Shown here in pieces: positions 33,909-56,504 of a stretch of 64,000 nt of DNA. The position numbers were made by a program, and so were the translations under genes. This DNA comes from an uncultured Gammaproteobacteria bacterium (GTDB taxonomy: Bacteria > Patescibacteriota > Patescibacteriia > Patescibacteriales > GWE2-39-37). How positions within the stretch are numbered: position 1 is the first letter of the stretch; every line of letters begins with the position of its first letter. The notes under the pieces are model-generated. The model worked only from the letters and a program-made list of their open reading frames with translations. It had not been told where the DNA came from and did not search any database. Location of the stretch: assembly GCA_964443495.1 (NCBI GenBank), contig CAYUCS010000003.1:132031-196030 (forward strand), read 5' to 3'.

Positions 33909-34099
33909 AGATTTCAGCTAACCAAAGCATTAGGGTTGCTCATACTGTAAGTAAATAACCTTTTATCAACCTTGTCCATAGCTATGACTGGTATGGATGT
34001 AAACAAAAAAAACGGACATCAAAGCCCGTTTTTTGTTTTGGGGTGAACGAACGAGAAAGTTGGAAAACTTTTTTGAAGGAGTATTTGCTGAATAGCTAA

Positions 34100-34146
34100 T
34101 TGACGTGGAATGTCCTTTAAGATATCATATTAATATAAAATGATAT
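34100..34146 (+). promoter_or_regulatory. Promoter and inverted repeat upstream of the ArsR-led island operon
   Basis: TTGACG (34100-34105), 17 nt, TATCAT (34123-34128). ATATCAT (34122) and ATGATAT (34140) form an inverted repeat overlapping the -10. Confidence 0.5.
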
Positions 34147-34157
34147 GATATTATATT

Positions 34158-34773: not shown

Positions 34774-34777
34774 TTTT

Positions 34778-35806
34778 ATGAGCATATTTTACCCTATACA
34801 ACTATTCGCCAATTGGCTGTCGTTTGATATTTTCGGATTAACTCCGAAAACATTGGCAGGCGAGGCAGTTAATTTTTTTGTTTTTGATACGATCAAAGTC
34901 TTTTTGCTTTTAGCAGTTATTATCTACATTGTCTCATTTATCCGCACCTATTTGCCACCCGAAAAAATCAGAGGCATTTTGTCGCATAAGAATAAATATT
35001 TCGGTCATGTTTTGGCGAGTCTGTTTGGCATTATAACGCCATTTTGCTCTTGCAGTGCTGTGCCATTATTTTTGGGTTTTGTTGAGGCGGGCGTACCGTT
35101 GGGTGTGACATTCTCCTTTTTGGTATCCTCGCCGATGATTAATGAGGTAGCCTTGGTGTTATTGCTTGGCATGTTCGGTTGGAAGATTGCCTTGATTTAC
35201 GTGGCTAGCGGTTTGATGATTGCTATTTTATCAGGACTCGCAATTGGCTTTTTTAATGTTGAACATTTGTTAGCTGATTTTATCAACAAGAATCGAGCCA
35301 AGCAAAATGCGATGCCATTAATGAAAATGACCACAAAGGACAGACAAGAATATGCTTGGAATTATGTTAAAGATATTATTAAAAAGGTTTGGCCATATAT
35401 CATAATTGGTATCGGCTTAGGTGCATGGATACACGGTTATGTGCCGACAGATTTTTTGGCCAAATATGCCGGGGCAGATAAATGGTACGCAGTGCCCCTA
35501 GCAACGTTGATCGGTATTCCGCTATACTCAAATGCCGCCGGCGTAATCCCATTGGTTAGCGCTTTGACCGAGAAAGGTGTAAGCATGGGGACAACCATGG
35601 CTTTTATGATGGCTGTGACGGCATTGTCGTTGCCCGAGTTCATGATTTTAAAGAAAGTCATGAAGACACGTTTAATCGTCATCTTTGCCGGTACGGTTGG
35701 TATAGGCATTATTATTACAGGCTATATGTTTAATTACATTATAGGCAATAATCACGGCAAGGTTCAGGCTATTGCTAATCAGGCAAGCGTAGAGCTAGAG
35801 AATTAA
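34778..35806 (+). CDS. Permease of the DUF318/YraQ (ArsP-like) family
   Basis: Polytopic protein. FGIITPFCSCSAVPLF is the family-typical CSC motif. Confidence 0.8.
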   Translation: MSIFYPIQLFANWLSFDIFGLTPKTLAGEAVNFFVFDTIKVFLLLAVIIYIVSFIRTYLPPEKIRGILSHKNKYFGHVLASLFGIITPFCSCSAVPLFLGFVEAGVPLGVTFSFLVSSPMINEVALVLLLGMFGWKIALIYVASGLMIAILSGLAIGFFNVEHLLADFINKNRAKQNAMPLMKMTTKDRQEYAWNYVKDIIKKVWPYIIIGIGLGAWIHGYVPTDFLAKYAGADKWYAVPLATLIGIPLYSNAAGVIPLVSALTEKGVSMGTTMAFMMAVTALSLPEFMILKKVMKTRLIVIFAGTVGIGIIITGYMFNYIIGNNHGKVQAIANQASVELEN

Positions 35807-35821
35807 TTATTAATAATTTCC

Positions 35822-36316
35822 ATGCTTATGAATAAATCATTAATATTATTATTGCTTATTTCAGTTAGTTTAACTTTAACTGGCTGTGGCAAGCAAGGCG
35901 TTGCAACGGATCAACAAGTTAAACCAGCAATCGCAAAAAAAAGAAGTGCGGACTATAGTCAAATGTCATCGCGGGAGAATGTGGCTGATAAGGTTCAGGT
36001 TTTTTTATTCCACCCCACTCAACGCTGTTCAACTTGTATAGCCATTGGAAAATTGGCGGGAGAAACGGTTAATGAAAGATTTCAAGCGGAACTCAAGTCG
36101 GGTAAAATTGAATTTAGAGAAGTTAATATTGATTTACCTGAGAATAAGGCATTGGCCACAAAATTCCAAGCGAGCGGATCAGCTTTATATCTGAATGCAA
36201 TCAGTGGTGACACTGATCGGATTGAGCAAGATGCCAAGGTTTGGCGCTTAACCCAAGATCCAGTCGTTTTTAAGGAATACCTTGAGGGCAGAATCAATAT
36301 CTTGCTTGGCAAATAA
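35822..36316 (+). CDS. Lipoprotein with thioredoxin-like CxxC region
   Basis: Lipobox LTLTGC. HPTQRCSTCIAIG. It resembles the small proteins usually paired with CcdA-like transporters in arsenical/redox clusters (from memory; name not certain). Confidence 0.6.
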   Translation: MLMNKSLILLLLISVSLTLTGCGKQGVATDQQVKPAIAKKRSADYSQMSSRENVADKVQVFLFHPTQRCSTCIAIGKLAGETVNERFQAELKSGKIEFREVNIDLPENKALATKFQASGSALYLNAISGDTDRIEQDAKVWRLTQDPVVFKEYLEGRINILLGK

Positions 36317-36318
36317 AT

Positions 36319-37047
36319 ATGGAATTAATTAACGCCCTTATTGATAATTACAACATTCCGATTTTATCAGCTTTTTTGCTGGGCGTTTTAACTTCGGTCA
36401 GTCCTTGTCCATTAGCCACCAATATCACAGCCGTTGCCTATATCTCTAAAGAGATTAAATCAGCAAAGAATACCTTATTAAACGGACTAGCCTATACGGT
36501 CGGGCGTGGCATTTCTTATGCAGTATTGGCTATGCTGATATATTTCGGCTTATCGTCATTTAAAATCTCAAGCATTTTTCAGGGTTGGGGTGATAAGGTG
36601 CTAGGAATCGTTTTGATTTTAATTGGCTTGGTTATGTTCGATGTGATCAGAATAAACATCGGAGCAAATAATGAAAGACTAGAAAAAATCAAAAGCTGGC
36701 TAGCTCAAAAGGGTTATATCGGGTCATTGTTATTAGGCGTGATTTTTTCGTTGGCTTTTTGTCCATACAGCGGAGTTTTATTTTTTGGCGTACTTGTGCC
36801 GTTGGTGGTGAAGTCTGCCGAGGGATTGCTGTTGCCAATCGTTTTCGCAATTGGTACTGGTTTGCCGGTGATTATATTTTCTTTTCTTTTGGCATTCAGT
36901 GTTGGTAAAGTTGGTAAAATGTTCGGTGCTATTCAGAAATTTGAGAAAGTCATGAGGTACGGCATTGCCTCTATTTTTATTATATCGGGTGTGTATTATT
37001 TGCAATTTTTATTTAAATATTTAGCACGTATTTGGATTGTAGATTAA
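36319..37047 (+). CDS. CcdA/DsbD-like thiol-disulfide transmembrane protein
   Basis: Six TM segments. Conserved Cys in TSVSPCPLA and AFCPYSG, matching the two half-channel Cys of the CcdA family. Confidence 0.8.
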   Translation: MELINALIDNYNIPILSAFLLGVLTSVSPCPLATNITAVAYISKEIKSAKNTLLNGLAYTVGRGISYAVLAMLIYFGLSSFKISSIFQGWGDKVLGIVLILIGLVMFDVIRINIGANNERLEKIKSWLAQKGYIGSLLLGVIFSLAFCPYSGVLFFGVLVPLVVKSAEGLLLPIVFAIGTGLPVIIFSFLLAFSVGKVGKMFGAIQKFEKVMRYGIASIFIISGVYYLQFLFKYLARIWIVD

Positions 37048-37086
37048 CTTCGAATGGAAAACTCCGTTTCTTGCCTTACATAACAG

Positions 37087-37113
37087 AAAATCCTCGCAAA
37101 AAGCGAGGATTTT
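37087..37113. terminator. Hairpin terminator closing the island operon
   Basis: AAAATCCTCGC-AAAAA-GCGAGGATTTT. Confidence 0.75.
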
Positions 37114-37121
37114 CATTTAGG

Positions 37122-37194
37122 GGTGGCTACAGGGAATCGAACCCTGATAATCGGCACCACAAGCCGGTGTAATAACCGCTATACGATAGCCACC
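37122..37194 (-). tRNA. tRNA-His (GTG) with encoded G-1
   Basis: Minus-strand G-GTGGCTA...CCGGC-TTGTGGT-GCCGA...CAGGG-TTCGATT-CCCTG-TAGCCAC-C. The extra 5' G pairs with C73. No complete CCA is encoded. Confidence 0.85.
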
Positions 37195-37256: not shown

Positions 37257-37321
37257 AGTACCCCCGGCAGCCTGCCTGCCGGCAGGCAGGGAGTCGAAGG
37301 GGCGGAAGCCCCACGCCGAAC
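37257..37321 (-). repeat. Displaced copy of the tRNA-Arg 3' end plus conserved GC hairpin (att-like remnant)
   Basis: Minus strand: CGGCGT-GGGGCTTCCGCCCC-TTCGACTC-[20-nt perfect palindrome]-CTGCCGGGGGTACT. The flanks are identical to 37387-37408 inside tRNA-Arg. Confidence 0.7.
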
Positions 37322-37388
37322 AGTAAATTCTTGACCAAGCCAGGAATAATAATATTTAACCCCAGAAGAATCTGGGCTTAAATATTAG

Positions 37389-37460
37389 TACCCCCGGCAG
37401 GAGTCGAACCTACGTAACCAGCTTAGAAGGCTGGTGTTCTATCCGTTGAACTACGGGGGC
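37389..37460 (-). tRNA. tRNA-Arg (TCT)
   Basis: GCCCCCG-TA-GTTC-AACGGATA-GAAC-A-CCAGC-CTTCTAA-GCTGG-TTAC-GTAGG-TTCGACT-CCTGC-CGGGGGT-A. 72 nt, no CCA encoded. Confidence 0.88.
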
Positions 37461-45659: not shown

Positions 45660-46946
45660 ATGAAAACCGAACGCAAAGACTTAGAAAAAGGGCAGATCGA
45701 ATTGTCGATCGAAGTCCCGGCCGAAGAGGTCAAGAAATATCTACCGCGAGCAGTCGAAAAGTTGTCCAGCGAAATAAAGATCGAGGGTTTCCGTCCGGGC
45801 AAAGCTTCTTTTGAGGCGCTTAAGCTCAAGGTGGGCGAACTGCCGATTTATGAAGAGGCGGCGCGCCTGGTCATCAACAAGACCTTGGACAAGATTTTAG
45901 AAACCGAGATCAAGGAAACTATCATCGGCCAGCCGGAAGTCAGCATCACCAAGCTGGCTCCAGATAATCCTCTCGAGTACAAGGTAATTGTCACCAAGCT
46001 GCCCGAAGTAACCTTGGGCCAGTACAAAGACTTGGGAATCAAGCAGGAGAAAATCAAGGTGGATGAAGAAGATGTCACTAAGCTGCTTTCCGAATTGCGC
46101 GAGATGCGGGTCAAAGAAGTAATCAGCGAAGACGCTATTAGCGAGATCGGCAAGGCAGTGATCGATATCAATATGTCGATCGACAACGTGCCGGTCGAAG
46201 GCGGACAGGCGAAGGACACGGCCGTCATCATGGGCAAGGGCTACGTCGTTCCTGGCTTTGACAAGCAGCTGATCGGCGCCAAGAAAGGCGACGAGCGCAC
46301 TTTTGCCCTGCATTTTCCGGAAAATCATCATCAGAAGAATCTTGCCGGCAAGATGGTCGACTTCGTAGTAAAAATTAAAGATGTGTATAAGCGCGAACTG
46401 CCTGAATTGGATGACCAATTCGCGGTCGATTTCGGGGCGCGCACGATCGAGCTCCTAAAGGAGGATATCAAGAAATCGATCGAAAAAGAGAAAGAGCAGC
46501 AGGCTGGGCAAAAGACGGAAATCGAGCTGTTGAACAAGCTGATTGATACGAGCAAGTTCGGCGATATCCCGCAGCAACTGGTCGAGCGCGAAACGCATAC
46601 TATGCTGCACGAGCTTGAGCATGACGTCGAGCATCAAGGCGCCAACTTCGACGACTACTTGTCGAGCCTGAAGAAGACCAGGGCCCAACTGATGTTGGAT
46701 ATGACTCCGGATGCGATGAAGCGGGTCAAGTCGGCTTTGATCATCCGTCAGATCGCCATCGATGAAAAGATCAAGGTTGAGAAGGAGGAAATCGAAGAAG
46801 AGATCCGCCACATCTTGAGCCATTATCCGAATAATCCGGAGGTGGCCGAGCGGGTCAATTCGCACGATTATTATCACTACCTGGAAAATTCAATGACCAA
46901 TCGTAAAGTCGTAAAGAAGCTGCATGATTGGAATGTGAAAAAGTAG
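45660..46946 (+). CDS. tig: Trigger factor
   Basis: N-terminal ribosome-binding GFRPGKA motif, central FKBP-type PPIase region, and a C-terminal helical arm domain. 428 aa. Confidence 0.92.
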   Translation: MKTERKDLEKGQIELSIEVPAEEVKKYLPRAVEKLSSEIKIEGFRPGKASFEALKLKVGELPIYEEAARLVINKTLDKILETEIKETIIGQPEVSITKLAPDNPLEYKVIVTKLPEVTLGQYKDLGIKQEKIKVDEEDVTKLLSELREMRVKEVISEDAISEIGKAVIDINMSIDNVPVEGGQAKDTAVIMGKGYVVPGFDKQLIGAKKGDERTFALHFPENHHQKNLAGKMVDFVVKIKDVYKRELPELDDQFAVDFGARTIELLKEDIKKSIEKEKEQQAGQKTEIELLNKLIDTSKFGDIPQQLVERETHTMLHELEHDVEHQGANFDDYLSSLKKTRAQLMLDMTPDAMKRVKSALIIRQIAIDEKIKVEKEEIEEEIRHILSHYPNNPEVAERVNSHDYYHYLENSMTNRKVVKKLHDWNVKK

Positions 46947-46965
46947 GAGGGTTCGAAATATAAAA

Positions 46966-46995
46966 ATATCCCCAGAGAATGGGGATATTTTTTTG
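46966..46995 (+). terminator. Rho-independent terminator of tig
   Basis: ATATCCCC-AGAGAAT-GGGGATAT followed by TTTTTTT. Confidence 0.85.
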
Positions 46996-47013
46996 TTTGT
47001 GCAGTTTCGCCTC

Positions 47014-47140
47014 GCCATTCCGCCGCCGCGGAATGGCTCGTTGTCCTGGGCAGCGATGAATGCTGGCCGCATTCATCGGCGTTCACTGCGAACCTGCTCT
47101 GCTGAGCAGGTTCTTGCTCACTGCTGCCCGTTCGAGTCCC
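47014..47140 (+). other. Noncoding cluster of perfect GC-rich hairpins ending in a T-loop-like GTTCGAGTCCC
   Basis: GCCATTCCGC/GCGGAATGGC (47014-47037). Closing stem GGGCAGC (47048) / GCTGCCC (47123) encloses GATGAATGC/GCATTCATC and GAACCTGCTC/GAGCAGGTTC. Then GTTCGAGTCCC (47130-47140). Confidence 0.5.
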
Positions 47141-47150
47141 CTTTCATGAT

Positions 47151-47198
47151 ACAAGCAATATAAAACACCCCTAATTAGGAGTGTTTTATATTGCTTGT
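47151..47198. repeat. 48-nt near-perfect palindrome
   Basis: ACAAGCAATATAAAACAC ... GTGTTTTATATTGCTTGT with centre CCCTAATTAGGA (one mismatch). The outer arms extend to GTTCGAGTCCC (47130) / GGGACTCGAAC (47208). Confidence 0.8.
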
Positions 47199-47240
47199 GC
47201 CGCGGGAGGGACTCGAACGGGGCGGAAGCCCCACGCCGTC
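47195..47240 (-). repeat. Displaced copy of the tRNA-Leu(TAA) 3' end plus conserved GC hairpin (att-like remnant)
   Basis: 47195-47218 is identical (24 nt) to 47374-47397 in the tRNA. It is followed on the T-loop side by GGGGCGGAAGCCCC-ACGCCG (47219-47238). Confidence 0.75.
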
Positions 47241-47376
47241 ATCTAGAGGGTTTCGTTTGTTTTTTAGTAAGAGCAAATAATTTGTCATTACTTAATTAAC
47301 CTCCTTCATCTAAGGTTTCTCGTACTTCCGACAACGCAAATAAAAAAGCCCCAGGTTACTGGAACTTTTTTATTTG

Positions 47377-47459
47377 TGCCGCGGGAGGGACTCGAACCCT
47401 CACGAGATTGCTCTCAGCAGATTTTAAGTCTGCCGCGTATACCATTCCGCCACCACGGC
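47377..47459 (-). tRNA. tRNA-Leu (TAA), long variable arm
   Basis: GCCGTGG...GCAGA-CTTAAAA-TCTGC-variable arm-GAGGG-TTCGAGT-CCCTC-CCGCGGC-A. No CCA encoded. It lies 6 nt after the tmRNA 3' end. Confidence 0.85.
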
Positions 47460-47465
47460 CGGATG

Positions 47466-47843
47466 TGGAGATGAGGAGAGTTGAACTCCTGTCTAATAAA
47501 GTTTTTAAAAACAGTTTACAAGCCGTAGCCGCTTTGTTTGTCTGACTGCAATCATCAAAAGTGGCAAAAGCGATTGCAGCGATCCCTAAAGTTTCGGACG
47601 AGCGGCCAGGGCCTCCGCTTGCCTATCTCTGAAAGATAACACCCGGATCGCGAGACCAGAGACTACCCGCGGCGGATGGTTGCGGCGATTTAAGCGGCAA
47701 CAGGTGCAAAGGCAGGTACCTTCCAGGTAAAGCCTTTGGCTAAAGTGTTTTTGGCACTTATGAATTTGAATCGGATTAAGGTGGCGATCCTGCACCGGCT
47801 TGAGTGTTTTCAAAGTTCTTTACTATCGATGCCCGTCATCCCC
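47466..47843 (-). ncRNA. ssrA: tmRNA (SsrA)
   Basis: 5' GGGGATGACGGGCATCGATAG. 3' AGGAG-TTCAACT-CTCCT-CATCTCC-A with a G3:U70 pair. Tag frame GCC AAA AAC ... GTT GCC GCT TAA gives AKNTLAKGFTWKVPAFAPVAA. Directly downstream of smpB. Confidence 0.88.
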
Positions 47844-47858: not shown

Positions 47859-48326
47859 CTATCGATGCGACAGTTTTTGCAGGCTTCGGAGCTTGCGGTC
47901 ACTTTCGCGCTGCTTGATAACATCGCGTTTGTCGTATTTCTTGCGACCCTTGCCTATGCCGAACTCCAGCTTAAGCAAGCTGCGTTTAGTATAGATTTTA
48001 ATCGGAACCAGTGTCAAGCCTTGCTCCTGCTTCTTGCCGATCAGAAAATTGATTTCTTTTTTCTTCAAAAGCAGCTTACGGGAGCGGTAAGGGTCGTAAC
48101 CGTCCAGCTTGCTGGCGTGCTTATATGCCGGAATATGGGCATTGATCAGGTAGAGTTCCGGTAGCTTAAGGTTGCCAGTCTTGACGGTAACGAAGGCGCC
48201 TTTTAGGCTAACATGACCAGTTTTTACCGATTTTACCTCCTGGCCGAACAAAACCAGGCCAGCCTCAAAAGTCTGGCTGATATCATAGTCGAATTTGGCG
48301 CGTTTGTTGTAGGCTAAGGTTGGCAT
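47859..48326 (-). CDS. smpB: SsrA-binding protein SmpB
   Basis: NKRAKFDYDI..FEAGLVLFGQEVKS, YDPYRSRKLLLKKKEI and a basic C-terminal tail. Confidence 0.93.
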   Translation of the reverse strand: MPTLAYNKRAKFDYDISQTFEAGLVLFGQEVKSVKTGHVSLKGAFVTVKTGNLKLPELYLINAHIPAYKHASKLDGYDPYRSRKLLLKKKEINFLIGKKQEQGLTLVPIKIYTKRSLLKLEFGIGKGRKKYDKRDVIKQRESDRKLRSLQKLSHR

Positions 48327-48735: not shown

Positions 48736-50004
48736 ATGCAAAAATGCAACTGTAGGTTGGGAGGGAAGGATCTGCTGAACGCGGTATTGGCGTATAACCA
48801 GTTTTTTGACGATTTGAAGAAGTGCTTCGTCGGACGTGATCGGGTGATAGACAATCTCCGGTTCGCCATGGTGCAGAAACAGCATCTCCTGACCTTCGGA
48901 CCCCCGGGCACCTCCAAAACCGCTATCTTCGATGTGCTGTACAGCGGACTGACTGACGTGAACGGCTTTCATGCCGAACTGTCGATGTTCATGACCGAAG
49001 ACGCACTTTTCGGTCCGTACAATCCGAAAAAGATGCGGGAAGAAGGCGTACTTGAACACAACGTGTCTGGCATGCTGCCTGAAGCCAACGTGGCCCGGCT
49101 CGGCGAGTTTCTTGACGCCAACATGCCGCTGCTCAGGTCAACCCTGTCAGCGCTTAATGAACGTCGCATGGTACGCGGCCGGCAAAATCTGAGCATCCCA
49201 CTCATCACCGCTTACTGCGACACCAACACCAACCCGGGCACTTTTCTGGAACGCCACCCCGAAGCTTGGGCAGTCCTCGACCGCTTCCTGTTCATGGCTT
49301 ACGTCGATTATCTTTCCGATCCCGACGAGATTGCCGAGATGTTGCTTCGCTTCCAGGGCGGCAACGTCACAAATCTCTCCGGCAGGCTGTCGATAAACCT
49401 GATAAACGAGTTATCGCGCCTGACCCTTGAGCCGCCAACCATAATCAAGAGCGAGTTGATTTTCAGGAAGCTGGCCCAGGGCATGCAGGAATATCGCACA
49501 CAGCGGCGCGCCGCCATCAGCGGGAACAAAATATCGGGAGTTATCCTCCCTGAAATTTCCGATCGGCGCCTTTGCTGGGCGTCGCAGGTTGCTGAGGTCA
49601 ATGCGATCTTGAGCGGCCGCGAAGAAGTGGTGCCTGAAGACATTATCGCTTTGAAGCAGGTTCTTGGCACGACCGAGGCAGAGGAGAAGCTGTGGAGCGA
49701 TATTGCGGCGAAGCTTATCGAGGAAATAAAGGAAGAACAGAAGATGCAGCTTGACCATGCTCAGTATATCGCGCTCGAAGGGCTGATCAAAGAGCTCGAC
49801 CAGGTCGATCCGGCAAGCGCCAAAGATATAACGGCGCTGAAGCAGATCGGAGATAATCTCATGTCTTTGAAAAAGCAGGCCGAGATAATCGTCCCTGAAA
49901 ACGACCAAGTCGCTTCGCTTGCTAAAAAGGCGGAGGCCATAATCGCTGAAAAGACTTTGATAATCAAGGGGCAAGCAGCCGCATTCGCCGGAGTATCGAA
50001 CTGA
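48736..50004 (+). CDS. MoxR-class AAA+ ATPase, RavA-like, with Walker B Asp-Ala instead of Asp-Glu
   Basis: Walker A [30 protein letters not shown] parallels RavA [31 protein letters not shown]. Long helical C-terminal half. AGGAG RBS. Confidence 0.8.
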   Translation: [422 protein letters not shown]

Positions 50005-50014
50005 ACCGAAGGAG

Positions 50015-50980
50015 GTGATCGCATTGTTTCTGTCATTGTTAGCTGGCGCTGCGGCGCTTGCGGCGGCCGCGGCCTTAGCGTGGCGCTTCTGGAAAAAAAT
50101 CAGGAAGGATCAGGAGGAAGAACAGAGGAGGCAGTCGAAAAATTTTTCTAGAAACCATGGAGGAGGCAACGGCTTCGAGGAAGAAAATGAGTATTCCGGA
50201 CCTGGCCAGCAAGAACGTGAACGTCGAGCAAGGGATTATTGGGCGCGCAAAAACGAATTGCTGCAGTCGATAGTCAGGTCAATCGAATTCTCAACAAGAG
50301 AGGTAGTTTCCGACATCCAGATTCCCGGCACACTTCCACGCCAATCGATCGTGCCTACTTCAAACTTCAATGTGAGGCCGATGAAGGGCGTGGGCGAATT
50401 TTCCTCCTTGCTGCCATCGGGCCATCTTTTCGAGGATGATCAGTTCTATGGCCGCATCGCAGCCAACAGCCTGCTGGTGGCTGAGTACCAGGAGTATTAT
50501 GGCAATGCTCGCCGCGTCCTTTTCGCGGCATTCGACGGCTCCGGCAGCATGGAAAAATACGGCCGCGTCGAATGGGCCATAGGCCTTTGCGAGGCGATCA
50601 TTGATCGCTGCGTCGAACAGCAGGCCGAGTTTTACCTCGTGGTATATTCGGGAGTGATCAAGGGCGTTTATCGTGTCCATGATCGCGCATCGGCAGCCGC
50701 GCTCAAAAGCAAGCTGCGAGAAGTGCTCCATCCGGATGGAGGTACCGATATCAACCTGGCGCTAAACACGATTTTCGACATGATCGGAAGCGGCAAGTTT
50801 TCAGAAGCACGCGGCTTGCTGGTGACTGACGGAACCGAGTCGGTGGACGAAGAGCAGATTCTGCATCGGCGCAATTCCGAAAGAGTTTTCCTTCATACGG
50901 TAAGCATTGCCGGCGAAAGGGATGATCTGCGACGCATATCCAATAAATTCGACCAACTGGCCATGAATTCCGCTCCATAG
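50015..50980 (+). CDS. Membrane-tethered von Willebrand factor A (VWA) protein, ViaA-like partner
   Basis: N-terminal TM helix followed by RFWKKIRK, which predicts a cytoplasmic body. Complete MIDAS (DGSGSM, GGTD, VTDGTES). Starts 10 nt after the ATPase gene. Confidence 0.85.
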   Translation: MIALFLSLLAGAAALAAAAALAWRFWKKIRKDQEEEQRRQSKNFSRNHGGGNGFEEENEYSGPGQQERERRARDYWARKNELLQSIVRSIEFSTREVVSDIQIPGTLPRQSIVPTSNFNVRPMKGVGEFSSLLPSGHLFEDDQFYGRIAANSLLVAEYQEYYGNARRVLFAAFDGSGSMEKYGRVEWAIGLCEAIIDRCVEQQAEFYLVVYSGVIKGVYRVHDRASAAALKSKLREVLHPDGGTDINLALNTIFDMIGSGKFSEARGLLVTDGTESVDEEQILHRRNSERVFLHTVSIAGERDDLRRISNKFDQLAMNSAP

Positions 50981-51002
50981 TTATTAAACAGACAAAATTT
51001 GC

Positions 51003-51030
51003 CCCCGCTCTCACAAGGAGCGGGGTTTTT
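51003..51030 (+). terminator. Rho-independent terminator after the VWA gene
   Basis: CCCCGCTC-TCACAAG-GAGCGGGG followed by TTTTT. Confidence 0.75.
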
Positions 51031-51032
51031 CA

Positions 51033-51061
51033 TTGATACTTAATCCAAATAATTATATAGT
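51033..51061 (+). promoter_or_regulatory. Promoter of the A2M-like/Memo-like unit
   Basis: TTGATA (51033-51038), 17 nt, TATAGT (51056-51061). Confidence 0.55.
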
Positions 51062-51098
51062 GGAAGTACTTAGGCTAGCAGATTTTTAATAAAAAAAT

Positions 51099-54000
51099 AT
51101 GTTTTTAAAAGATCACAATGAAGGGCAGACGGGGGGAGCGGCTGGCCAGCAGGCAGCAGCTGCTCCAAACCGGAGTTTTAAAAAAATCGCCATCGCTGCA
51201 ATCGCCTGTTTGGTTGTGGCTGGCGCCGCATTATCGGTGTTCGGTTATCTTAATTCACGTAATACTACATCCGGAAAGCTTGAATTGTCTTTGGTGGCCC
51301 AAGGCGGCGACCTTAACGGCATTGAGAAAAGGGGCTCATTTACCTTGTCTTCAAGCAGGAAGCTGTCTGCAACGGAAATTGAAAAGAATCTGAAATTCGA
51401 TCCGCAGGTGAAATTCGACATTCGTGAGAAGAAGTCCGTATTTTCGTTTCTGGCCGGCAGCGTTTTGGCGGCAAGCCGATCAGCTGCCTTGGATAATCAA
51501 TATGAGATAACGCCCAAGGAGCCGTTGCTCGACGGCGTCGTGTACAAGGTGCAGACAGCCGCATCTTCCAGCTTGCAGTTGGACCATGATTATTCCTGGG
51601 CATTCAACGTAAAGGAAGATTTCGGCATCGATGAGTCGTTGCCGAACGATGAAGCGTACGGCGTACCGGTCAACACCGGCATCGAGGTCACGATGAACCG
51701 CTTGAGCATCGGGCGCGACATCGAGAAATACTTTTCAATCGAACCGAGCGTCAAAGGACGCTTCGAGGTCGGCATGAACAAGATAGTCTTCATTCCGGAA
51801 GGCGACTTGAAAGGCAAGACGTTGTATAGGGTCGTCATCAAGAAGGGCTACAAGGCAGGCGAGAAGAACGAAGAGCTGCTTGAGGATAAGTCGTTCGTTT
51901 TTGAGACTGCCAGCACGGAGAAAGAGGCTTATGTACCGACCATGTCTTGGAGCGACGACTATTTCGAGCTATCTACGAACAACGAAGGCTTTCTTGAGGC
52001 CAGTGGCGACGCCACCACCTCGGAAGTGACATTGAGCCGGTACGCGGATATGGCAGGTTTCTTGAAGGATTTTTACGATTTCCGCGACCGCGCGTACGAC
52101 TGGTCAAATTTCAACAAAGAGCAATTCAAGCCGAGTCCCGCTGCTCAGGAAGTGGCCAAGTTCAAGCCTGAACTCTTGAAGCGGGCAGAGGGAGATAATT
52201 ACGGCTTGATCAAGCTGCCGCGAAAGCTCGAGGCTGGTTTTTATGCGGCCAAAGTCGCAGTCGGCAACGTCGCCGAATACTCGTTTATCCGGGTATCTCC
52301 GCTAGCGTATTATTATTCGCAGATCAACGGAGACGGACTGGTCTGGGCTTACGATTTCGTCAACAAGAAGCCGTTTGCCGGCGTCAGGGTGGCGCTGCTC
52401 GAGAATGGGGGCGGCGAAAAGCAGCTTGGCCAAACCGATGCCGACGGTTTGCTGAAGTTCGATTCAAGTTCGAACAAGGATGATAATTCCGGCATGACCT
52501 TAGTTTTCAGAGGTGACGAAGTCGGTGAGACGGTGGCGCCGGATGCAGGCCGCATCATGGAGAAGCGCAGCAATTTCTATCAAGGATACCTGAATACGGA
52601 TCGTTATGCTTATCGGCTGACTGACAAGGTTCATTTTTGGGGCGTGGTCAAGGGCAGGAGCTTCGATTTGCGCCAGAAGAAGGTGAAAGTCCGCTTGGAT
52701 GATTATATTGAAAAAGAAATCATGGTTTCTCCTTTTGATACCGTCGAGGGAGAGCTTGATTTTGCCGGACTGCCTTCGGGTTATCACAATCTGGTGGTAA
52801 GTTATGACGATGAGGTGATCGCCCAATCAGGAATAGAGGTCTTTTCTTTCGAGAAGCCGCTGTACAAGATCGAGGTTACGCCGGATAAATCATTTTCAGT
52901 GACTGATGCTCCGGTCAAGGCTAAGATCAAGGTCAGTTTTTTTGACGGAACGCCCGTCAAGGATATGGATTTGAACTATTCGATCTATTGGCGCGGCGAC
53001 AATAACGGCACGGTCAGGACCAACGACCAGGGAGAAGCCGAATTGTCCTATACGCCCGGATATTATTTCGAGGAGACTAGTGACCAGTATTCCGATTCAT
53101 GGACGACCTATCCCGGCAGCCTGCGTTTTTCCGTGAGGCCGCAATTGCCCGAAGAGGGTGAGATTTGGGGCGAGGCCTATGTCAGCGTCTATGGACCCAA
53201 GCTCTATATGCAATCCGAGGGGTCGGAAAAAGATGGCGCGTTAGTGTTCAAGAGCAAGGTCAATGACCTGGATCTGGCAACGAGCACGGAAGAAAACCTG
53301 ATCGGCCGTCCGGCCGCCGGCGTCAAGATGAAGGCGAAGGTAGTGCGGTATTATTATGAGGAAAAACCTGATGGCGAATATTATGACCCGATAGAGAAGG
53401 TTAAGATCAAGAAGTTTACCTACGAATTAAAAAAGGAAACAGTCAGGGAAGCTGAGGGCACAAGCGACCAGCGGGGAGAGTGGTCGATCCAGGTCGACAA
53501 GAAAGAAATCAAGAAGTTCGGCTATATCAAGACGATTTTTTCCGCTCAAGACGTTGACGGCAAGAAGGTTATGAGTGCCGCCCAGTCGTATAACTACTAT
53601 CCTAACGACAACACTGCGCTGAACCTGGAGAATGCCGACATCGAAAAGACGCCGGGTGTTTCGTATAAAATCGGTGACAAAGTCAATTTGCGGGTTGTCT
53701 TGACCGGCCCCAAAAAGCCAGTCGACGACCGCACGCTTATTGTCGGCTTCCAGGAGGGATTGCGGAGCGCAAGGCTGATCAATCAGACGACTTTCTCAGA
53801 CACCTTCAGCCGCGACCATGTGCCATCGATGACATATATGGCGGTCAAGATGATGCCGAGCGGCTTCATCGAGAGTTATTATGTGACTGCTTCGTACAAG
53901 GAAGATGAAAGCAAGTTGTCGGTAGAAATATCTTCGGACAAAGAAAGGTACAAGCCGAGGGAAGACATCAATCTCGACATTGCCATCAAGAACAAGTCCG

Positions 54001-56504
54001 GCCAGGGCGTCAAAGCGGTCGCGAATGTCGCAGCTGTCGACGAGTCTCTTTTCAGCGTGACTCCTTGGGGATATGGCGGTGAAATTTTGAGCTCCCTTTA
54101 TGCCGACATCATCGCCTACCCGAGCTCGTTATCTACGAGATATGTCACGGACTATCGCAATGGCGCGGAGAAAGGCGGCTGCTTCGTCGCTGGCACTGAA
54201 ATCAGCTTGGCTGACGGCACAAGAAAGAAGATCGAGGAGGTGCGTGTCGGCGATGAGGTCGTGACTTTCGAGAACGAGAACTCGACCGCCAAGGCCAAGA
54301 GCGTGGTCCAAGGCGTGTCTTCGCATGACGTCGGCGGCTATTTGTTAGTCAATAACAAGCTCAAGGCCACGCCGGAGCACCGGGTTTCGGTCAGCGGAGA
54401 ATGGAAGCCGATCGGCCATGCCAAAGTCGGTGATTTTTTGACGACCGAGGATGGGCGGTCGGAAAAGATCGAGGATATCAGATATGTCAGCGCCAAAAGC
54501 GTGAAAGTTTACAATATTATCGTCGGCCGTTATCACACTTACTTGGCCGATGGCTATTATGTCCATAACGCGGAAAAGGGCGGCGGCGGCGACGTCAGGA
54601 ATTTTTTCGAAGACACGCCTTTGTACAAGCAGATGGAATCAGATGAAAGCGGCCAGCTTAAGGCGTCCTTCAAGGCTCCGGATAACCTGACTAGCTGGCG
54701 TGTTTCGGTCAATGCGTATAGTCCGGAAACTTTCAGCGCTGGCAGCCAAGACAAGCTGGTGCCCGTCGGGCTGCCCTTGTTCGCCGACGCAGTAGTGGCC
54801 AAAAAATATCTGACGGGCGATTCGCCGATCATCAAGATACGCGCGTTCGGCACGGAGTACAAGAAGGACGAGCCGATCGAATTCAGCGTGGCCTGCGAGA
54901 GCTTGAAGCTGTCATTTGCGACCACCACGAAATCGAATGAGACAGCGGTCGCCCTCGGAGCGTTGCCTAGAGGAAGACACGACTTGATAATCAGGGTTAA
55001 GCAAGGCAACCTGTCAGACGCGCTGGAAAAGAAATTCGAGGTTATCGATAATTACTTTAAGGAATTGAAAACCGACAGCAAGCTGCTGCGTGACGGGGCG
55101 GCGGATCTCAAGGGCAATGCGGCCGGTTTTACGGATGTCGTTTTCGTCGATGAGGGCAAGGGCAGATTCTTCGAATATCTTTTGAGCTTGACCTGGCAAT
55201 CAAGCATCCGCTCGGATGTCCAGGCAGCTTCATATCTAGCCGCTAAAGCTCTGAATCAATATTTTTATCCAGACAAAAAACATTTCAACGAAGACATAGC
55301 TTTGTCTGGGTATCAGTCACGGGAAGAATGGGCTGGTCCGCTGGCGGTTTTTCCTTACGGCAAGCCGAGCATCAGGCTGACCGCCGAAATGGCTGATGCC
55401 ATGCCAGAAGCTTTTGATAATACCTGGGCAGCGGATGCTTTGGAGGCTAGATTGAACGAACAGAAACTTGATCCGACGGAAGCTGGCCAAGCATTGTGGG
55501 CTTTGGCGGCGCTCGGTCGTCCCCAGCTGCCATTGATAAACTATCTTAAGAATAGCGCCACCACCACGGTCGAAGCGCGGCTGTATCTGGCCTTAGCGCT
55601 GGATAGTGCCGGCGATTCCGAAGGGGCAAGGGAAATCTATTTCGACCAGCTGCTACCTCAACTCAAGATTGAAAATGGCCAGGCACATTTCGAGGTGGGC
55701 CCCTCTAAGGATGCGAACATCAAAGCAACGGCGATCTTCGGCCTGCTGGTGTCGCGGCTCGATCTTTCCGACGAGGGTCGGAACTTAAAGATGATAATCA
55801 ATTACCTGGCGGACAATCAGCCGAAAGAGGATACGATCGCGCTTGAGGAGGCCATGATCGTAAAGAGCGAAATCGCCAAGGCCGATCAGGGCGACACGTC
55901 GTTCGACTATTCGACCGCTGACCGCAAAGGGTCTGTTGATTTGAGCAAGGGGCGGTCATTCCAGTTGACGCTGTCCAGTCAGGAGTTTCCATCATTATCT
56001 TTCAGCAATGTGAAGGGACTGCCCAGAGCCATAAGCTATTATGAGAATTACGCAGATCCGGCAAAAATACCGACGAGCGATATGCTAAGCGTCGAGCGGC
56101 AATATCTTGTGAACGGCAAAGAGGTTACCGAATTCAAGGAGGGCGACTTGATCACTGTCCGCCTGACTCCTCGCCTTGCAGCCGGAGCGCCTGACGGCTC
56201 GTATCAGCTGGCAGAGTATCTGCCTTCGGCGTTGAAGCCGATCGTCCGCAATTACGGGCTGGACATTGAGACTGGAAGCGATTGCAACCCGATCTGGTAT
56301 CCGGTCAAAACCACTGATGAGGCGGTGTATTTCGATATCGGGAAATGGTTCCAGGCTTCCGAGCGCTGCCAGCAGCGCACGGTCAATTTCAGGGCAAGGG
56401 TGATCGGCAAAGGCAATTTCAAGGCGCAGCCAGCCTCGTTCCAATCGCTTGTCGATGTCAACGTGATCGGCTTGTCAAAAGAGAAGAATATCCAAGTCAA
56501 ATAA
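51099..56504 (+). CDS. Membrane-anchored alpha-2-macroglobulin-like giant protein (thioester-less) with an internal Hint/mini-intein domain
   Basis: RSFKK plus a TM helix gives N-in/C-out topology. Repeated beta-sandwich-like segments. RNFFEDT..APDNLTSWRVSV and LPLFADAVVAKKYLTGDSPIIKIR match the post-bait A2M/C3 motifs. A helical TED-like region (EAGQALWALAALG) has no CxEQ. C-terminal AEYLPSALKPI is a receptor-domain-like motif. Confidence 0.65.
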   Translation: MFLKDHNEGQTGGAAGQQAAAAPNRSFKKIAIAAIACLVVAGAALSVFGYLNSRNTTSGKLELSLVAQGGDLNGIEKRGSFTLSSSRKLSATEIEKNLKFDPQVKFDIREKKSVFSFLAGSVLAASRSAALDNQYEITPKEPLLDGVVYKVQTAASSSLQLDHDYSWAFNVKEDFGIDESLPNDEAYGVPVNTGIEVTMNRLSIGRDIEKYFSIEPSVKGRFEVGMNKIVFIPEGDLKGKTLYRVVIKKGYKAGEKNEELLEDKSFVFETASTEKEAYVPTMSWSDDYFELSTNNEGFLEASGDATTSEVTLSRYADMAGFLKDFYDFRDRAYDWSNFNKEQFKPSPAAQEVAKFKPELLKRAEGDNYGLIKLPRKLEAGFYAAKVAVGNVAEYSFIRVSPLAYYYSQINGDGLVWAYDFVNKKPFAGVRVALLENGGGEKQLGQTDADGLLKFDSSSNKDDNSGMTLVFRGDEVGETVAPDAGRIMEKRSNFYQGYLNTDRYAYRLTDKVHFWGVVKGRSFDLRQKKVKVRLDDYIEKEIMVSPFDTVEGELDFAGLPSGYHNLVVSYDDEVIAQSGIEVFSFEKPLYKIEVTPDKSFSVTDAPVKAKIKVSFFDGTPVKDMDLNYSIYWRGDNNGTVRTNDQGEAELSYTPGYYFEETSDQYSDSWTTYPGSLRFSVRPQLPEEGEIWGEAYVSVYGPKLYMQSEGSEKDGALVFKSKVNDLDLATSTEENLIGRPAAGVKMKAKVVRYYYEEKPDGEYYDPIEKVKIKKFTYELKKETVREAEGTSDQRGEWSIQVDKKEIKKFGYIKTIFSAQDVDGKKVMSAAQSYNYYPNDNTALNLENADIEKTPGVSYKIGDKVNLRVVLTGPKKPVDDRTLIVGFQEGLRSARLINQTTFSDTFSRDHVPSMTYMAVKMMPSGFIESYYVTASYKEDESKLSVEISSDKERYKPREDINLDIAIKNKSGQGVKAVANVAAVDESLFSVTPWGYGGEILSSLYADIIAYPSSLSTRYVTDYRNGAEKGGCFVAGTEISLADGTRKKIEEVRVGDEVVTFENENSTAKAKSVVQGVSSHDVGGYLLVNNKLKATPEHRVSVSGEWKPIGHAKVGDFLTTEDGRSEKIEDIRYVSAKSVKVYNIIVGRYHTYLADGYYVHNAEKGGGGDVRNFFEDTPLYKQMESDESGQLKASFKAPDNLTSWRVSVNAYSPETFSAGSQDKLVPVGLPLFADAVVAKKYLTGDSPIIKIRAFGTEYKKDEPIEFSVACESLKLSFATTTKSNETAVALGALPRGRHDLIIRVKQGNLSDALEKKFEVIDNYFKELKTDSKLLRDGAADLKGNAAGFTDVVFVDEGKGRFFEYLLSLTWQSSIRSDVQAASYLAAKALNQYFYPDKKHFNEDIALSGYQSREEWAGPLAVFPYGKPSIRLTAEMADAMPEAFDNTWAADALEARLNEQKLDPTEAGQALWALAALGRPQLPLINYLKNSATTTVEARLYLALALDSAGDSEGAREIYFDQLLPQLKIENGQAHFEVGPSKDANIKATAIFGLLVSRLDLSDEGRNLKMIINYLADNQPKEDTIALEEAMIVKSEIAKADQGDTSFDYSTADRKGSVDLSKGRSFQLTLSSQEFPSLSFSNVKGLPRAISYYENYADPAKIPTSDMLSVERQYLVNGKEVTEFKEGDLITVRLTPRLAAGAPDGSYQLAEYLPSALKPIVRNYGLDIETGSDCNPIWYPVKTTDEAVYFDIGKWFQASERCQQRTVNFRARVIGKGNFKAQPASFQSLVDVNVIGLSKEKNIQVK
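54180..54569 (+). other. Hint (mini-intein/BIL-like) domain, aa 1028-1157 of the giant protein
   Basis: Block A CFVAGTEISLADG, block B ATPEHRV, block F VYNIIVGRYHTYLADG, block G YYVHN. The next residue is Ala. Flanked by AEKGG on both sides. Confidence 0.8.

Follow-up and report, generated by a model that had tools for sequence, protein, structure and literature searches.

Organisation of the tRNA-Leu(taa) locus

The stretch of DNA analysed here (the window, 64,000 nt) belongs to Candidatus Falkowbacteria (Patescibacteria). Within it, smpB (47859-48326) is followed by the tmRNA gene (47465-47843) and, 5 nt downstream of the latter, by the gene for tRNA-Leu(taa). Two repeated sequences lie side by side at this locus. 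The 24-mer TTGTGCCGCGGGAGGGACTCGAAC has exactly two copies, one at 47195-47218 and the other, which is nt 53-76 of tRNA-Leu(taa) on the minus strand, at 47374-47397; the 20-mer GGGGCGGAAGCCCCACGCCG likewise has exactly two, at 47219-47238 and, next to a tRNA-Arg gene, at 37299-37318 (0 in 100 shuffles for either repeat). The exact 24-nt repeat, the 20-mer held in common with the Arg locus and the position in an smpB-ssrA-tRNA cluster had been pointed out in an earlier sequence-only reading of the window, and all three were confirmed. The features of the locus are the following.

46956-46998 (no strand): bidirectional terminator shared with tig
46999-47150 (minus): element 2, a GC-rich three-hairpin block (z = -5.7), not in the related loci L047 and L050
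47151-47198 (no strand): second terminator-like palindrome after the distal copy (inverted repeat I2, 24-nt arms, 96% complementary)
47195-47218 (minus): distal copy of tRNA nt 53-76, an exact repeat
47219-47238 (minus): end motif CGGCGT-GGGGC-TTCC-GCCCC (tRNA strand), with its hairpin at 47219-47232
47239-47316 (minus): AT-rich spacer, mark of the long (class B) form
47317-47339 (minus): IR-L, imperfect inverted copy of tRNA nt 76-54, TTGCGTTGTCGGAAGTACGAGAA, from alignment to the repeat complement
47337-47373 (minus): terminator hairpin of the insert, AAATAAAAAAGTTCCAG-TAAC-CTGGGGCTTTTTTATTT, not in the empty sites L047 and L050
47376-47459 (minus): functional tRNA-Leu(taa) (ARAGORN and Rfam), its nt 53-76 being the proximal repeat copy

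Read on the tRNA strand, the tRNA is followed by a terminator hairpin, an imperfect inverted copy of its nt 76-49, a spacer, the GGGGCTTCCGCCCC hairpin and lastly a direct copy of its nt 54-74. The tRNA is left intact, and its end is present a second time, apparently redundantly, beyond a gene-less cassette of about 155 nt; GGGGCTTCCGCCCC lies directly against the distal copy, its hairpin (47219-47232) adjoining position 53/54. The sequence-only reading had assigned the intervening hairpin (around 47337-47373) to the tRNA as its own terminator; since this hairpin is missing from the empty site of the closest relative, it belongs to the insert and is not the native terminator. The native terminator of the empty site is probably the segment at 46956-46998, which shares 69% identity with the terminator of L047, as against 52-60% for the two other hairpins.

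In the window, the unit at tRNA-Leu(taa) is followed by a different GC-rich insert, element 2, which is apparently also older. It contains an inverted copy of the junction CCCGTTCGAGTCCC at 47127-47140 and a hairpin (47014-47037) resembling tRNA-Leu nt 8-18, and its end, GCACAA, adjoins the tig terminator. A comparable long variant was found after tRNA-Pro in L035. A small ORF running through the motif (47175-47288, minus strand, 37 aa, with an GAAGGAGG ribosome-binding site) was rejected as a gene: it is not kept in L049, the orthologous filled site, where the spacer bearing its start has diverged, and units of the short class have no equivalent.

The same arrangement at other tRNA and tmRNA genes

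Three of the six T-loop genes in the window (Arg-tct, Leu-taa and Leu-cag) bear the module. The parts of the other two units are the following.

37257-37460 (minus): Arg unit (class A), with tRNA-Arg(tct) at 37388-37460 and its nt 54-74 at 37388-37408
37328-37350, approximately (minus): IR-L of the Arg unit, with the motif at 37299-37318
37257-37298 (minus): distal copy of the Arg unit, interrupted by a perfect palindrome of 20 nt (37271-37290)
60882-61075 (plus): Leu(cag) unit (class A, period 107), with the tRNA at 60882-60966 and the terminator at 60973-60996
60995-61029 (plus): IR-L of the Leu(cag) unit, with the hairpin at 61039-61052 and the distal copy at 61053-61075

The Leu(cag) unit, in which the 5' part of the motif reads TTCAAC instead of CGGCGT, is apparently the third instance to which the sequence-only reading alluded. 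That reading had argued for one element family with various tRNA targets rather than for slippage, and this argument is upheld by the presence of the hairpin together with the local nt 54-74 at three tRNAs of the window and by the recurrence of the hairpin and tRNA copy, in other Patescibacteria, at no fewer than 30 tRNA or tmRNA genes that cover 11 amino-acid specificities. Of the tRNA and tmRNA genes sampled from relatives within the Patescibacteria, about one in two is followed by such a cassette: 33 related low-GC loci (249 kb) hold 65 of these genes, and 30 of them have a downstream copy. The same architecture was seen at different tRNAs in 4 low-GC MAG loci and about 24 metagenome loci, and tmRNA is also a target (L020 and L041). 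Two successive units occur in tandem in L020 and in L034; in the latter, the sole array with a canonical pair, the distal unit is decayed.

The GC hairpin and CGGCGT are the same at different tRNAs, in genomes of 30-53% GC. The same hairpin ends most cassettes of the family, including 5 of the 8 units detected only via the tRNA duplicate, the apparent conservation of the 20-mer being owed in part to its use as search query. Matches to the 20-mer in high-GC genomes (7 of 11 in the genome collection) were set aside as chance, the tRNA-linked architecture being absent from them, and likewise several in high-GC metagenome contigs. The linkers upstream of the motif are genome-specific.

Empty and filled sites

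When filled sites were compared with the empty sites of close relatives, an extra block was found between direct repeats of tRNA nt 54-74. The direct repeat is 21 nt long; its first base is exactly T54, or G53 where the tRNA is of class II. Of the 41 tRNA-motif pairs listed, 38 are identical from T54 onwards (in about 10 of these the tRNA is not the one adjoining the motif) and 3 from G53 onwards; the identity extends over 21-25 nt, and 23 pairs are identical at 21/21. The extra block holds no gene, provides the tRNA with a terminator and measures 86-99 bp in the short class and about 157-163 bp in the long class, the units thus falling into two size classes with periods of 107-120 nt or 178-184 nt. 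The ends of the insert, an A-rich terminator on the left and GGGGCTTCCGCCCC on the right, are unrelated to each other, and terminal inverted repeats are absent; only the latter end is conserved in sequence. The distal copy is decayed or split by a palindrome in at least 7 units.

Empty sites are available at four tRNAs. The Leu-taa site is empty in L047 (with tig 89% identical) and in L050, and filled with a homologous unit in L049; the Leu-cag site is empty in L051, L053 and L054 and filled in L052, and the distal flank of the Leu-cag unit in the window matches the native flank of L051. The Met and Pro sites are empty in L012 and filled in L038, with 67-82% identity between distal and native flanks. 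At the Met, Pro and Leu-cag pairs the flank after the distal copy is orthologous to the native flank, unlike at Leu-taa, where a further insert follows. These empty sites are compatible with excision. Further copies and insertion/deletion polymorphism, without which the sequence-only reading would have been given up, are both present in relatives.

Between the window and L049, identity is 94% in the terminator, which forms the centre of a long hairpin, 89% in the motif, 74% in IR-L and 48% (gapped) in the spacer, which appears free of constraint; the distal copy of L049 co-varies with a change in the T stem of the tRNA. The terminators of the Met and Pro inserts of L038 are 79-82% identical, compared with a median of 54% for unrelated pairs, which suggests that a cassette may have moved between tRNA species. 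In L022, the tRNA and IR-L derive from one natural allele and the distal copy from another, pointing to spread by homologous recombination.

These comparisons bear on the idea that local mutation, either slippage or template switching at a terminator hairpin, produced the repeats in place and that no mobile sequence is involved. Two fold-back template switches would yield the order direct-inverted-direct around two hairpins, and other palindromised tRNA fragments do exist in these genomes. This idea is nevertheless contradicted by the common foreign motif, GC hairpin plus CGGCGT, at different tRNAs, and the inserted terminator does not come from the native flank: a derivation of the proximal terminator by palindromisation of that flank was rejected for L038, whose terminator is only 49% identical to the L012 flank. 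We consider local mutation so improbable as to be nearly negligible.

Predicted folding and the inverted copy

As single-stranded DNA, the Leu-taa segment 47312-47400 folds with z = -4.0, none of 200 shuffles being equally stable. Together, tRNA nt 49-76, the terminator and IR-L fold into a long hairpin with z-scores of -4.0 at Leu-taa, -6.3 at Arg and -5.8 at Leu(cag). Wherever the proximal and distal copies differ, IR-L follows the proximal one. It is an inverted copy of the tRNA 3' strand, only 60-85% complementary even in units absent from close relatives, and its T-loop part systematically reads RAGAA; neither the imperfect complementarity nor RAGAA is predicted by any model considered here. 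Two other origins of IR-L were rejected. As a primer-binding site for mature tRNA it should complement CCA, and it complements the genomic trailer (CAA or CAC); were it left over from the 5' strand in another copy of the tRNA, it should carry the G3 of the real strand, and in Ala units it has A opposite U70.

The predicted pairing also invites the explanation that the unit is a host small RNA, in which a transcript from IR-L to the distal copy mimics an acceptor/T-arm helix, with the GC hairpin inserted at the T-loop, serving enzymes with specificity for the tRNA top half as a decoy or as a processing signal. Class A units are of tRNA size (about 70-79 nt) and fold with IR-L paired to the distal copy beneath the GC hairpin (z = -1.0 to -5.2), IR-L, motif and copy evolve more slowly than the spacer, and the copy tracks the tRNA. 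Against this, the mismatches between IR-L and the copy (24 G.U, 21 A.C and 82 other) show no strand-specific wobble, the Leu-taa and Arg folds of the window do not surpass those of shuffled sequence (z = -0.6 and -1.5), and IR-L pairs better with the proximal tRNA end. IR-L comes after a terminator T-run, the search for a promoter was negative and so was Rfam; at least 7 distal copies are degraded as described above, and units are present or absent between near-identical relatives. A small-RNA function is accordingly improbable in our estimation.

Searches for an enzyme and for known families

The inserts contain no recombinase gene, being too short for one at 86-163 bp, and we searched for an enzyme elsewhere. 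No integrase, transposase or reverse transcriptase was detected by Pfam in the 45 longer ORFs of the 64-kb window, nor were Cas1, DDE, TnpA, TnpB, IscB or Cas genes seen in the same scans, and the 372-aa extra gene adjoining the L049 unit has no recombinase domain. The integrase-type mechanism implied by the sequence-only reading was hence not borne out. No autonomous (long) copy was found among the loci examined, and the cassette is best read as non-autonomous. In viral contigs, a search for hairpin plus T-loop returned only one high-GC phage family, which lacks the tRNA-linked architecture, and BLAST against phages and plasmids gave no match. With Rfam 15 at gathering thresholds, only tRNAs and the tmRNA pass in the whole window, and a permissive scan of 46940-47400 yielded only hairpin noise of microRNA type. 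Integron attC geometry, the GTTC target of IS91, dif/Xer sites and a Chi-like function of the motif do not appear to fit the order of the parts. A literature search by 14-mer and by keyword found no description of such cassettes, and the family is apparently undescribed so far.

The units could alternatively be scars of large integrative elements or prophages that were deleted down to both ends. Elements that bring their own integrase do classically show a direct repeat of the 3' part of the tRNA, stack in tandem and use tmRNA (as in the tycheposon preprint 10.1101/2020.12.28.424599). At least 30 independent loci, however, share two tight size classes and one internal order, on which deletions of kilobase-sized elements would not converge; moreover, no integrase fragments were noticed between the repeats of the units read (inserts of 86-163 bp), and the matches in viral contigs were chance ones in high-GC phages only. 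We regard scars as very improbable. As a qualification of the sequence-only reading, an element of this size without any gene is neither an island nor a prophage.

The association of a hairpin with a target-matching segment also recalls an RNA-guided homing module (omega-RNA or crRNA-like), with the hairpin as scaffold, the 21-nt tRNA copy as guide, and a nuclease or transposase encoded elsewhere that is directed to empty tRNA genes. Consistent with it, a constant hairpin at the element boundary directly adjoins a variable segment whose identity with the target is maintained, and GC-rich multi-hairpin scaffolds of 100-130 nt exist in some relatives (46999-47150 of the window; L035). The adjoining functional tRNA, however, is a perfect target, so that the module would turn on its own locus; in the short form the scaffold measures only about 20-30 nt, the ORF scans showed no TnpB, IscB or Cas gene, and guide-RNA families in Rfam gave no match. 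Homing of this kind is highly improbable.

A possible mechanism

The repeat is the product of neither slippage nor a classical island. Its reading as the mark of a mobile insertion cassette is, in our judgement, quite probable; the fuller proposal of a miniature, gene-less cassette specific to the segment from T-loop to 3' end of tRNA and tmRNA genes in Patescibacteria is evenly poised. Such a cassette would enter between G53 and T54 and supply or regenerate the 3' end of the gene, and the distal copy at 47195-47218 would be the original 3' end, displaced outwards and attR-like. The GC hairpin and the long hairpin (3' part of the tRNA, terminator and inverted copy) would serve as recognition sites for an enzyme encoded in trans that acts on folded DNA. 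From strain to strain, the cassette could spread by homologous recombination, with the body of the tRNA as left arm and the distal copy as right arm, and it could be lost precisely by deletion between the direct repeats of 21-24 nt, favoured by the palindrome.

Site-specific recombination at the T-loop by a hairpin-acting recombinase is a tentative part of this picture and somewhat doubtful. The core site of tyrosine recombinases normally consists of inverted half-sites around an overlap of 6-8 bp. Here, the end junction reads GCCCC/TTCGAGT/CCCTC, its left half is not an inverted repeat of its right half, and the GCCCC of the motif to the left of the T-loop is not an inverted repeat of the 3' strand of the T stem. 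At about 110-180 bp, a circular intermediate in double-stranded form would be uncomfortably small. In addition, a crossover in the T-loop requires a tRNA-specific 3' end on the insert, and this makes movement between tRNA species, as suggested by the Met and Pro units of L038, hard to explain.

Two related schemes are, taken together, unlikely. In the first, the element retargets itself with its own target as template: the constant core, from terminator to GC hairpin, could be placed by copying behind whichever gene has a T-loop, the process itself would write the direct copy of nt 54-74 and the inverted copy of nt 76-49 that flank the core, and the latter would serve as a guide (DNA or RNA) or as a folded recombination site. 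In the second, spread takes place by natural transformation without a dedicated enzyme, since the duplicated 21 nt could let the recipient's tRNA gene provide both homology arms.

Of similar standing, and thus also unlikely, is a transposon that duplicates its target site. Staggered cuts in the two strands at T54 and after C74, with 21 nt between them, would be followed by gap repair that duplicates nt 54-74 around an inserted block reaching from terminator to hairpin; the inverted copy would be a second target copy made at insertion or a DNA guide for target selection. A duplication fixed at 21 nt with fixed landmarks in any tRNA, two copies that are usually identical (the 23 pairs at 21/21), and one backbone found at different tRNAs, always with the sequence of the local tRNA, all agree with this scheme, whose nearest precedents are casposons and the CRISPR spacer integrase. 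Speaking against it, terminal inverted repeats are absent and a single end is conserved, the imperfect inverted copy is left unexplained, and no Cas1 or DDE gene lies in the ORFs scanned. The distal copy of L022, being that of another natural allele, would call for recombination in any case.

Large mobile elements classically land at tRNA 3' ends. In the present case, the same signature arises from gene-less inserts of 86-163 bp in a lineage with very small genomes, and if mobile, these cassettes would be among the smallest site-specific elements known. The puzzle would then be how a constant core acquires direct and inverted copies of each tRNA that it enters, and its solution could bring to light a new recombinase or guide principle, or a way of spreading by homologous recombination that needs no enzyme. 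In practical terms, duplicated tRNA ends and GC hairpins will mislead tRNA annotation, predictors of islands and att sites, and assembly in Patescibacteria, and the empty/filled polymorphisms are possible strain markers.

Comparison with known systems

Islands, prophages and tycheposons that cross over in the T-loop resemble the cassettes in the direct repeat from T-loop to 3' end, the restored gene, the use of tmRNA, the stacking of new units at the tRNA with outward displacement of older ones, and their polymorphic presence. The cassettes differ from them in being gene-less and only 86-163 bp long, in the extra inverted copy of the tRNA end and the asymmetric core site, and in the use of one GC hairpin at 11 tRNA specificities, with the same backbone at two tRNAs of one genome.

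MITEs and palindromes derived from IS200/IS605 are likewise non-coding, 100-200 bp long and intergenic behind genes, with a hairpin at each end. Those of IS200/IS605 type also lack terminal inverted repeats, and insertion by this family takes place 3' of a fixed target of 4-5 nt without target duplication, the fixed junction in the cassettes being G53/T54. Neither kind, however, takes along or duplicates 21 nt of its target or is restricted to one class of genes, whereas in the cassettes the terminator end is unconserved, part of the insert is tRNA-specific and a 21-nt repeat flanks it. MITEs derived from DDE transposons have terminal inverted repeats and target-site duplications of 2-10 bp, in contrast to the unrelated ends and 21-nt duplication of the cassettes.

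Casposons and CRISPR spacer integration share with the cassettes an unusually long duplication, of fixed length, of a defined target segment. Their duplications are of 14-15 nt or of a CRISPR repeat, compared with 21 nt here, and the cassettes have an inverted target copy and neither a Cas1 gene nor terminal inverted repeats. Some casposons use a tRNA 3' end (see also PMC6614799).

The likeness to tRNA-like mimics (viral ones, YrlA, the tmRNA domain) lies in the predicted helix of 12-15 bp, corresponding to acceptor and T stem, and in the T-loop nucleotides; the cassettes depart from these mimics in having the discriminator base paired and no wobble signature, and in being polymorphic and often decayed. 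REP and REPIN sequences, finally, are mobilised in trans by RAYT transposases and are, like the cassettes, GC-rich multi-copy hairpins downstream of genes, non-autonomous and built of two imperfect inverted arms (see also PMC3184786). The arms of REPINs are uniform throughout a genome, whereas those of the cassettes copy the neighbouring tRNA, and only an apex of 14-20 nt is constant.

The duplicated tRNA end in the window

The 24-mer TTGTGCCGCGGGAGGGACTCGAAC has exactly two occurrences in the window, at 47195-47218 and 47374-47397, and none of 100 shuffles contains it, which bears out the exact duplication of the tRNA-Leu(TAA) 3' end described in the sequence-only reading. The second occurrence corresponds to nt 53-76, the 3' end, of tRNA-Leu(taa). 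The motif GGGGCGGAAGCCCCACGCCG adjoins the first at 47219-47238 and recurs a single time in the window, at 37299-37318, downstream of tRNA-Arg(tct), as had likewise been reported; at this Arg locus the tRNA-end copy is interrupted by a 20-nt perfect palindrome. With the tRNA-Leu(cag) unit as a third instance, the feature is found at three of the six T-loop genes of the window (Arg-tct, Leu-taa and Leu-cag), the tRNA-His, tRNA-Gly and tmRNA genes being without it.

Features of the Leu-taa and Leu-cag loci in the window
47376-47459, minus strand: tRNA-Leu(taa), 5 nt downstream of the tmRNA
47465-47843: tmRNA, downstream of smpB
47859-48326: smpB, upstream of the tmRNA
61039-61052: hairpin GGGGCTTCCGCCCC of the tRNA-Leu(cag) unit
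61053-61075: tRNA-end copy of the tRNA-Leu(cag) unit

Architecture of the units

All units present the same order on the tRNA strand: the functional tRNA, a terminator-like hairpin, an inverted segment (IR-L), a short linker or an AT-rich spacer of ~70 nt, the end motif (C/T)GGCGT-GGGGC-TTCC-GCCCC and, directly after it, a direct (distal) copy of tRNA nt 54-74, followed in about half of the cases by an additional terminator. Among 41 script-listed tRNA-motif pairs, ~10 of which join a motif to a non-adjacent tRNA, identity between the direct copies begins at T54 in 38 and at G53 in three, all class II tRNAs; it spans 21-25 nt, and the distal copy is intact (21/21) in 23 of the listed pairs. 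Short-period units (class A) have periods of 107-120 nt, except for two units of 90-91 nt and one of 134 nt, and long-period units (class B), including the reported Leu-taa unit (period 179), have periods of 178-184 nt. Class B units have the appearance of class A units enlarged by ~70 nt of AT-rich, unconstrained DNA, with a short direct repeat at both edges of this DNA (TAGATGA.GG at 47296-47305 and 47239-47248 in the window, AAATGA.G in the orthologous unit of L049); in every class B unit, CGGCGT follows a TGA.

IR-L is an inverted but imperfect copy of tRNA nt 76-49 plus the complement of 1-3 trailer bases; at the T-loop position it has RAGAA or ..GAA, not the exact complement. The idea of a primer-binding site for mature tRNA was rejected, as IR-L complements the genomic trailer and not CCA, and so was that of a relic of the 5' strand, as Ala units have A opposite U70; IR-L is thus a copy of the 3' strand in inverted form, at the level of DNA. 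Where the direct copies differ, it matches the proximal copy in four of seven cases, with two ties, and its mismatches to the copy (24 G.U, 21 A.C and 82 others) reveal no strand-specific wobble. When folded as ssDNA, tRNA nt 49-76, terminator and IR-L make up a single long hairpin in each of the three window units (z = -4.0, -6.3 and -5.8; 0 of 200 shuffles as good), and pairing of IR-L with the distal copy has no significant stability for the Leu-taa or Arg unit.

The unit matches no Rfam family, and neither a conserved ORF nor a promoter signal was found. Pfam scans of 45 of the longer window ORFs yielded no recombinase, transposase or reverse transcriptase, only housekeeping or other non-mobile functions (including PNPase, NusA, H+-PPase, trigger factor, SmpB, RNase J and IF3), and the extra gene in L049 has none of these three domains either.

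Recurrence in other genomes and metagenomes

The window organism belongs to Candidatus Falkowbacteria; the trigger factor it encodes shares 89% identity with the counterpart in GCA_013336275.1, and remoter matches are labelled Patescibacteria. A 20-mer search of genomes returned 11 loci, four of which, in low-GC MAGs, reproduce the architecture of the window units exactly, at tRNAs for Gly, Ala and Pro; the other seven are chance matches in high-GC genomes without tRNA-linked architecture. Scanning metagenomes added 32 loci, ~24 with the architecture of the window units. Across 33 low-GC loci (249 kb), a downstream copy of the gene's own 3' end follows 30 of 65 tRNA/tmRNA genes (Gly, Ala, Pro, Asp, Glu, Val, Met, Ile, Arg, Ser and Leu tRNAs and tmRNA), in agreement with the earlier proposal of one element family with different tRNA targets. 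Eight units were detected through the tRNA-end duplicate alone, without recourse to the search motif. The same 14-nt hairpin is present in five of them (in one case with loop TTCT), the variant TGGGC-TTTA-GCCC in one, and other GC-rich blocks in two. Because five of these units carry the hairpin too, its constancy is not only a search artefact.

The loci have two gene orders in common, tmRNA-Leu(taa)-Gly(gcc) and Ile-Met-Phe-Pro-Gly. At two loci, L023 and L040, the "tRNA" 5' of the Pro unit is only a T-arm and acceptor 3' fragment, preceded by unrelated AT-rich sequence with a promoter-like TTGAC...TAATAT; no intact tRNA-Pro is present on the sequenced piece, and another insertion further 5' in the gene may be the reason. 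No similar element was found in phage collections, plasmid collections or viral contigs, and a literature search with the hairpin sequence gave no match.

Empty and filled sites

At the Leu-taa locus, L047 (GCA_013336275.1) and L050 are empty, with tig, one terminator, tRNA-Leu(taa), tmRNA and smpB but no insert. L049 is filled by an orthologous class B unit of period 180 with the motif variant CGGTGT..., and has CCCTT in the tRNA T-stem and distal copy alike, versus CCCTC in the window. The Leu-cag locus is filled in L052 and empty in L051, L053 and L054; the flank of L051, which is from the same genome as L047, is close to that of the window by eye, and the window distal flank AATCAGATTTCAATAAG... 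matches its native flank. The Met and Pro loci are empty in L012 and filled in L038, where the native flank, 67-82% identical, comes after the distal copy. The proximal terminator is therefore part of the insert and not, as the sequence-only reading had it, the tRNA's own. The best window match to the L047 native terminator is the tig-side terminator at 46956-46998 (69%, versus 52-60% for the other two).

Movement, constraint and decay

The Met and Pro inserts of L038 have a terminator in common (79-82% identity), the only non-orthologous pair above 70% (median 54%), yet in each the IR-L and copy are those of its own tRNA. The linker that precedes the motif tracks the genome, not the tRNA (TGTGT in some genomes, CCATT in L012 and L038, CCAGT in L034 and L035, TGA in class B). 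Between window and L049, identity is 94% in the terminator, 89% in the motif, 74% in IR-L and 48% in the spacer. Distal copies are decayed in L011, L017, L032, L034 and L035, and interrupted by palindromes in the window Arg unit and L017. Units may also be stacked: in L020 two class B units stand in tandem where its relative L041 has one, and L034 has two different units, the distal one decayed. In L022, the tRNA and IR-L carry the CCCAC allele and the distal copy the CCGGC allele, as in L011 and L036, a mix that homologous recombination would give if its right-hand crossover fell within the T-loop of a recipient with an empty site.

Further inserts and palindromes

A second, different GC-rich insert occupies 46999-47150, with the reported repeat on one side and the tig-side terminator, probably the native one, on the other. 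Absent from L047 and L050, it comprises three hairpins (RNA fold z = -5.7), with an inverted copy of the hairpin/T-loop junction at 47127-47140 and a hairpin at 47014-47037 resembling tRNA-Leu nt 8-18, and probably represents an earlier insertion by a longer, related family. A comparable insert follows tRNA-Pro in L035.

The perfect 20-nt palindrome CCTGCCTGCCGGCAGGCAGG is inserted cleanly, without target duplication, at three places, each a redundant tRNA copy, and looks like a separate, tiny palindromic mobile sequence.

Occurrences of the palindrome
Window 37271-37290: CCTGCCTGCCGGCAGGCAGG within the displaced tRNA-Arg end
L047 6583-6602: CCTGCCTGCCGGCAGGCAGG within the D-arm of the second tandem tRNA-Gly(gcc) copy
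L051 1351-1370: CCTGCCTGCCGGCAGGCAGG within the 5' partial copy of tRNA-Leu(cag)
L020 about 4690: 14-nt core of CCTGCCTGCCGGCAGGCAGG

GCA_013336275.1, the closest relative, has a full tandem duplicate of tRNA-Gly(gcc) (L047 6477-6665) and a 5' partial duplicate of tRNA-Leu(cag) including ~20 nt of upstream flank (L051 1335-1530). In this genome, cassette-free at Leu-taa and Leu-cag, both redundant copies are disabled by the palindrome and decay. The displaced tRNA-Glu copy downstream of the motif in L017 contains a 43-nt GC-rich imperfect palindrome, CGCCCGCAATGACTCGCAAGCTCGTCTTGCGTGTCGGGCGGGC, at the T-stem/acceptor boundary; the Arg palindrome of the window lies within the 3' strand of the T-stem, a few bases to the 5' side of that boundary.

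Other features of the window

A low-GC block (34000-37100; GC 0.35-0.41 versus ~0.50) directly downstream of tRNA-His (37120-37193, minus strand) encodes an ArsP-type permease and a DsbD_2 protein; judging from raw sequence alone, an ArsR-like regulator and a thioredoxin-like protein may be encoded there as well. The far side of the block yielded no repeated tRNA-His end. At 10570-12792, genes for a LexA-like S24 peptidase and a Y-family (ImpB/MucB/SamB) polymerase are arranged divergently; they form an SOS-type mutagenesis pair, here in a reduced genome. The region 48736-56504 encodes a MoxR-type AAA ATPase and a VWA protein, then a 1801-aa protein whose L047 orthologue has Big_5, alpha-2-macroglobulin and Hint-type domains.

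Proposed mechanism and relation to known systems

The insert is recurrent, polymorphic and gene-less, has a fixed architecture and lies between 21-nt direct repeats (T54-C74) of its host tRNA or tmRNA gene. On one side it ends in a conserved GC hairpin, and the inverted copy inside it base-pairs, over the insert's terminator, with the 3' end of the gene. Our preferred reading, which we hold at about even odds, is a miniature, non-autonomous insertion cassette with the following life cycle. The cassette would enter at G53|T54, the tRNA staying functional and the old 3' end being left as the distal copy; its folded DNA would be handled by an enzyme encoded elsewhere; it could spread between strains by homologous recombination and be lost through deletion between the direct repeats. 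Stimulation of such deletions by a palindrome between the repeats is established for Tn5 and Tn10 precise excision. The main puzzle is how one backbone gains both copies of a new tRNA: an integrase-type model leaves this unexplained and a target-duplication model accounts for the direct copy only. Because neither explains both copies, the rival explanations keep appreciable weight, and the mechanism is one that we infer.

Among known systems, the closest working likeness is to tRNA-targeting integrative elements, with their att duplications, including stacking and tmRNA use, although the unit has neither a recombinase gene nor a symmetric core. MITEs and IS200/IS605-derived hairpin elements are alike in size and absence of genes. 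The unit has neither the terminal inverted repeats nor the short target duplication (2-10 bp) of MITEs; set against the IS200/IS605-derived type, it combines two end hairpins and a fixed junction at G53|T54 with a flanking 21-nt repeat, and no TnpA or TnpB gene was seen among the scanned window ORFs. Cas1-type integration shares the fixed long duplication and no other feature. The unit is therefore filed as site-specific insertion at tRNA 3' ends, a variant of that known kind; a target-copying or enzyme-free mechanism, which would be something new, seems unlikely.
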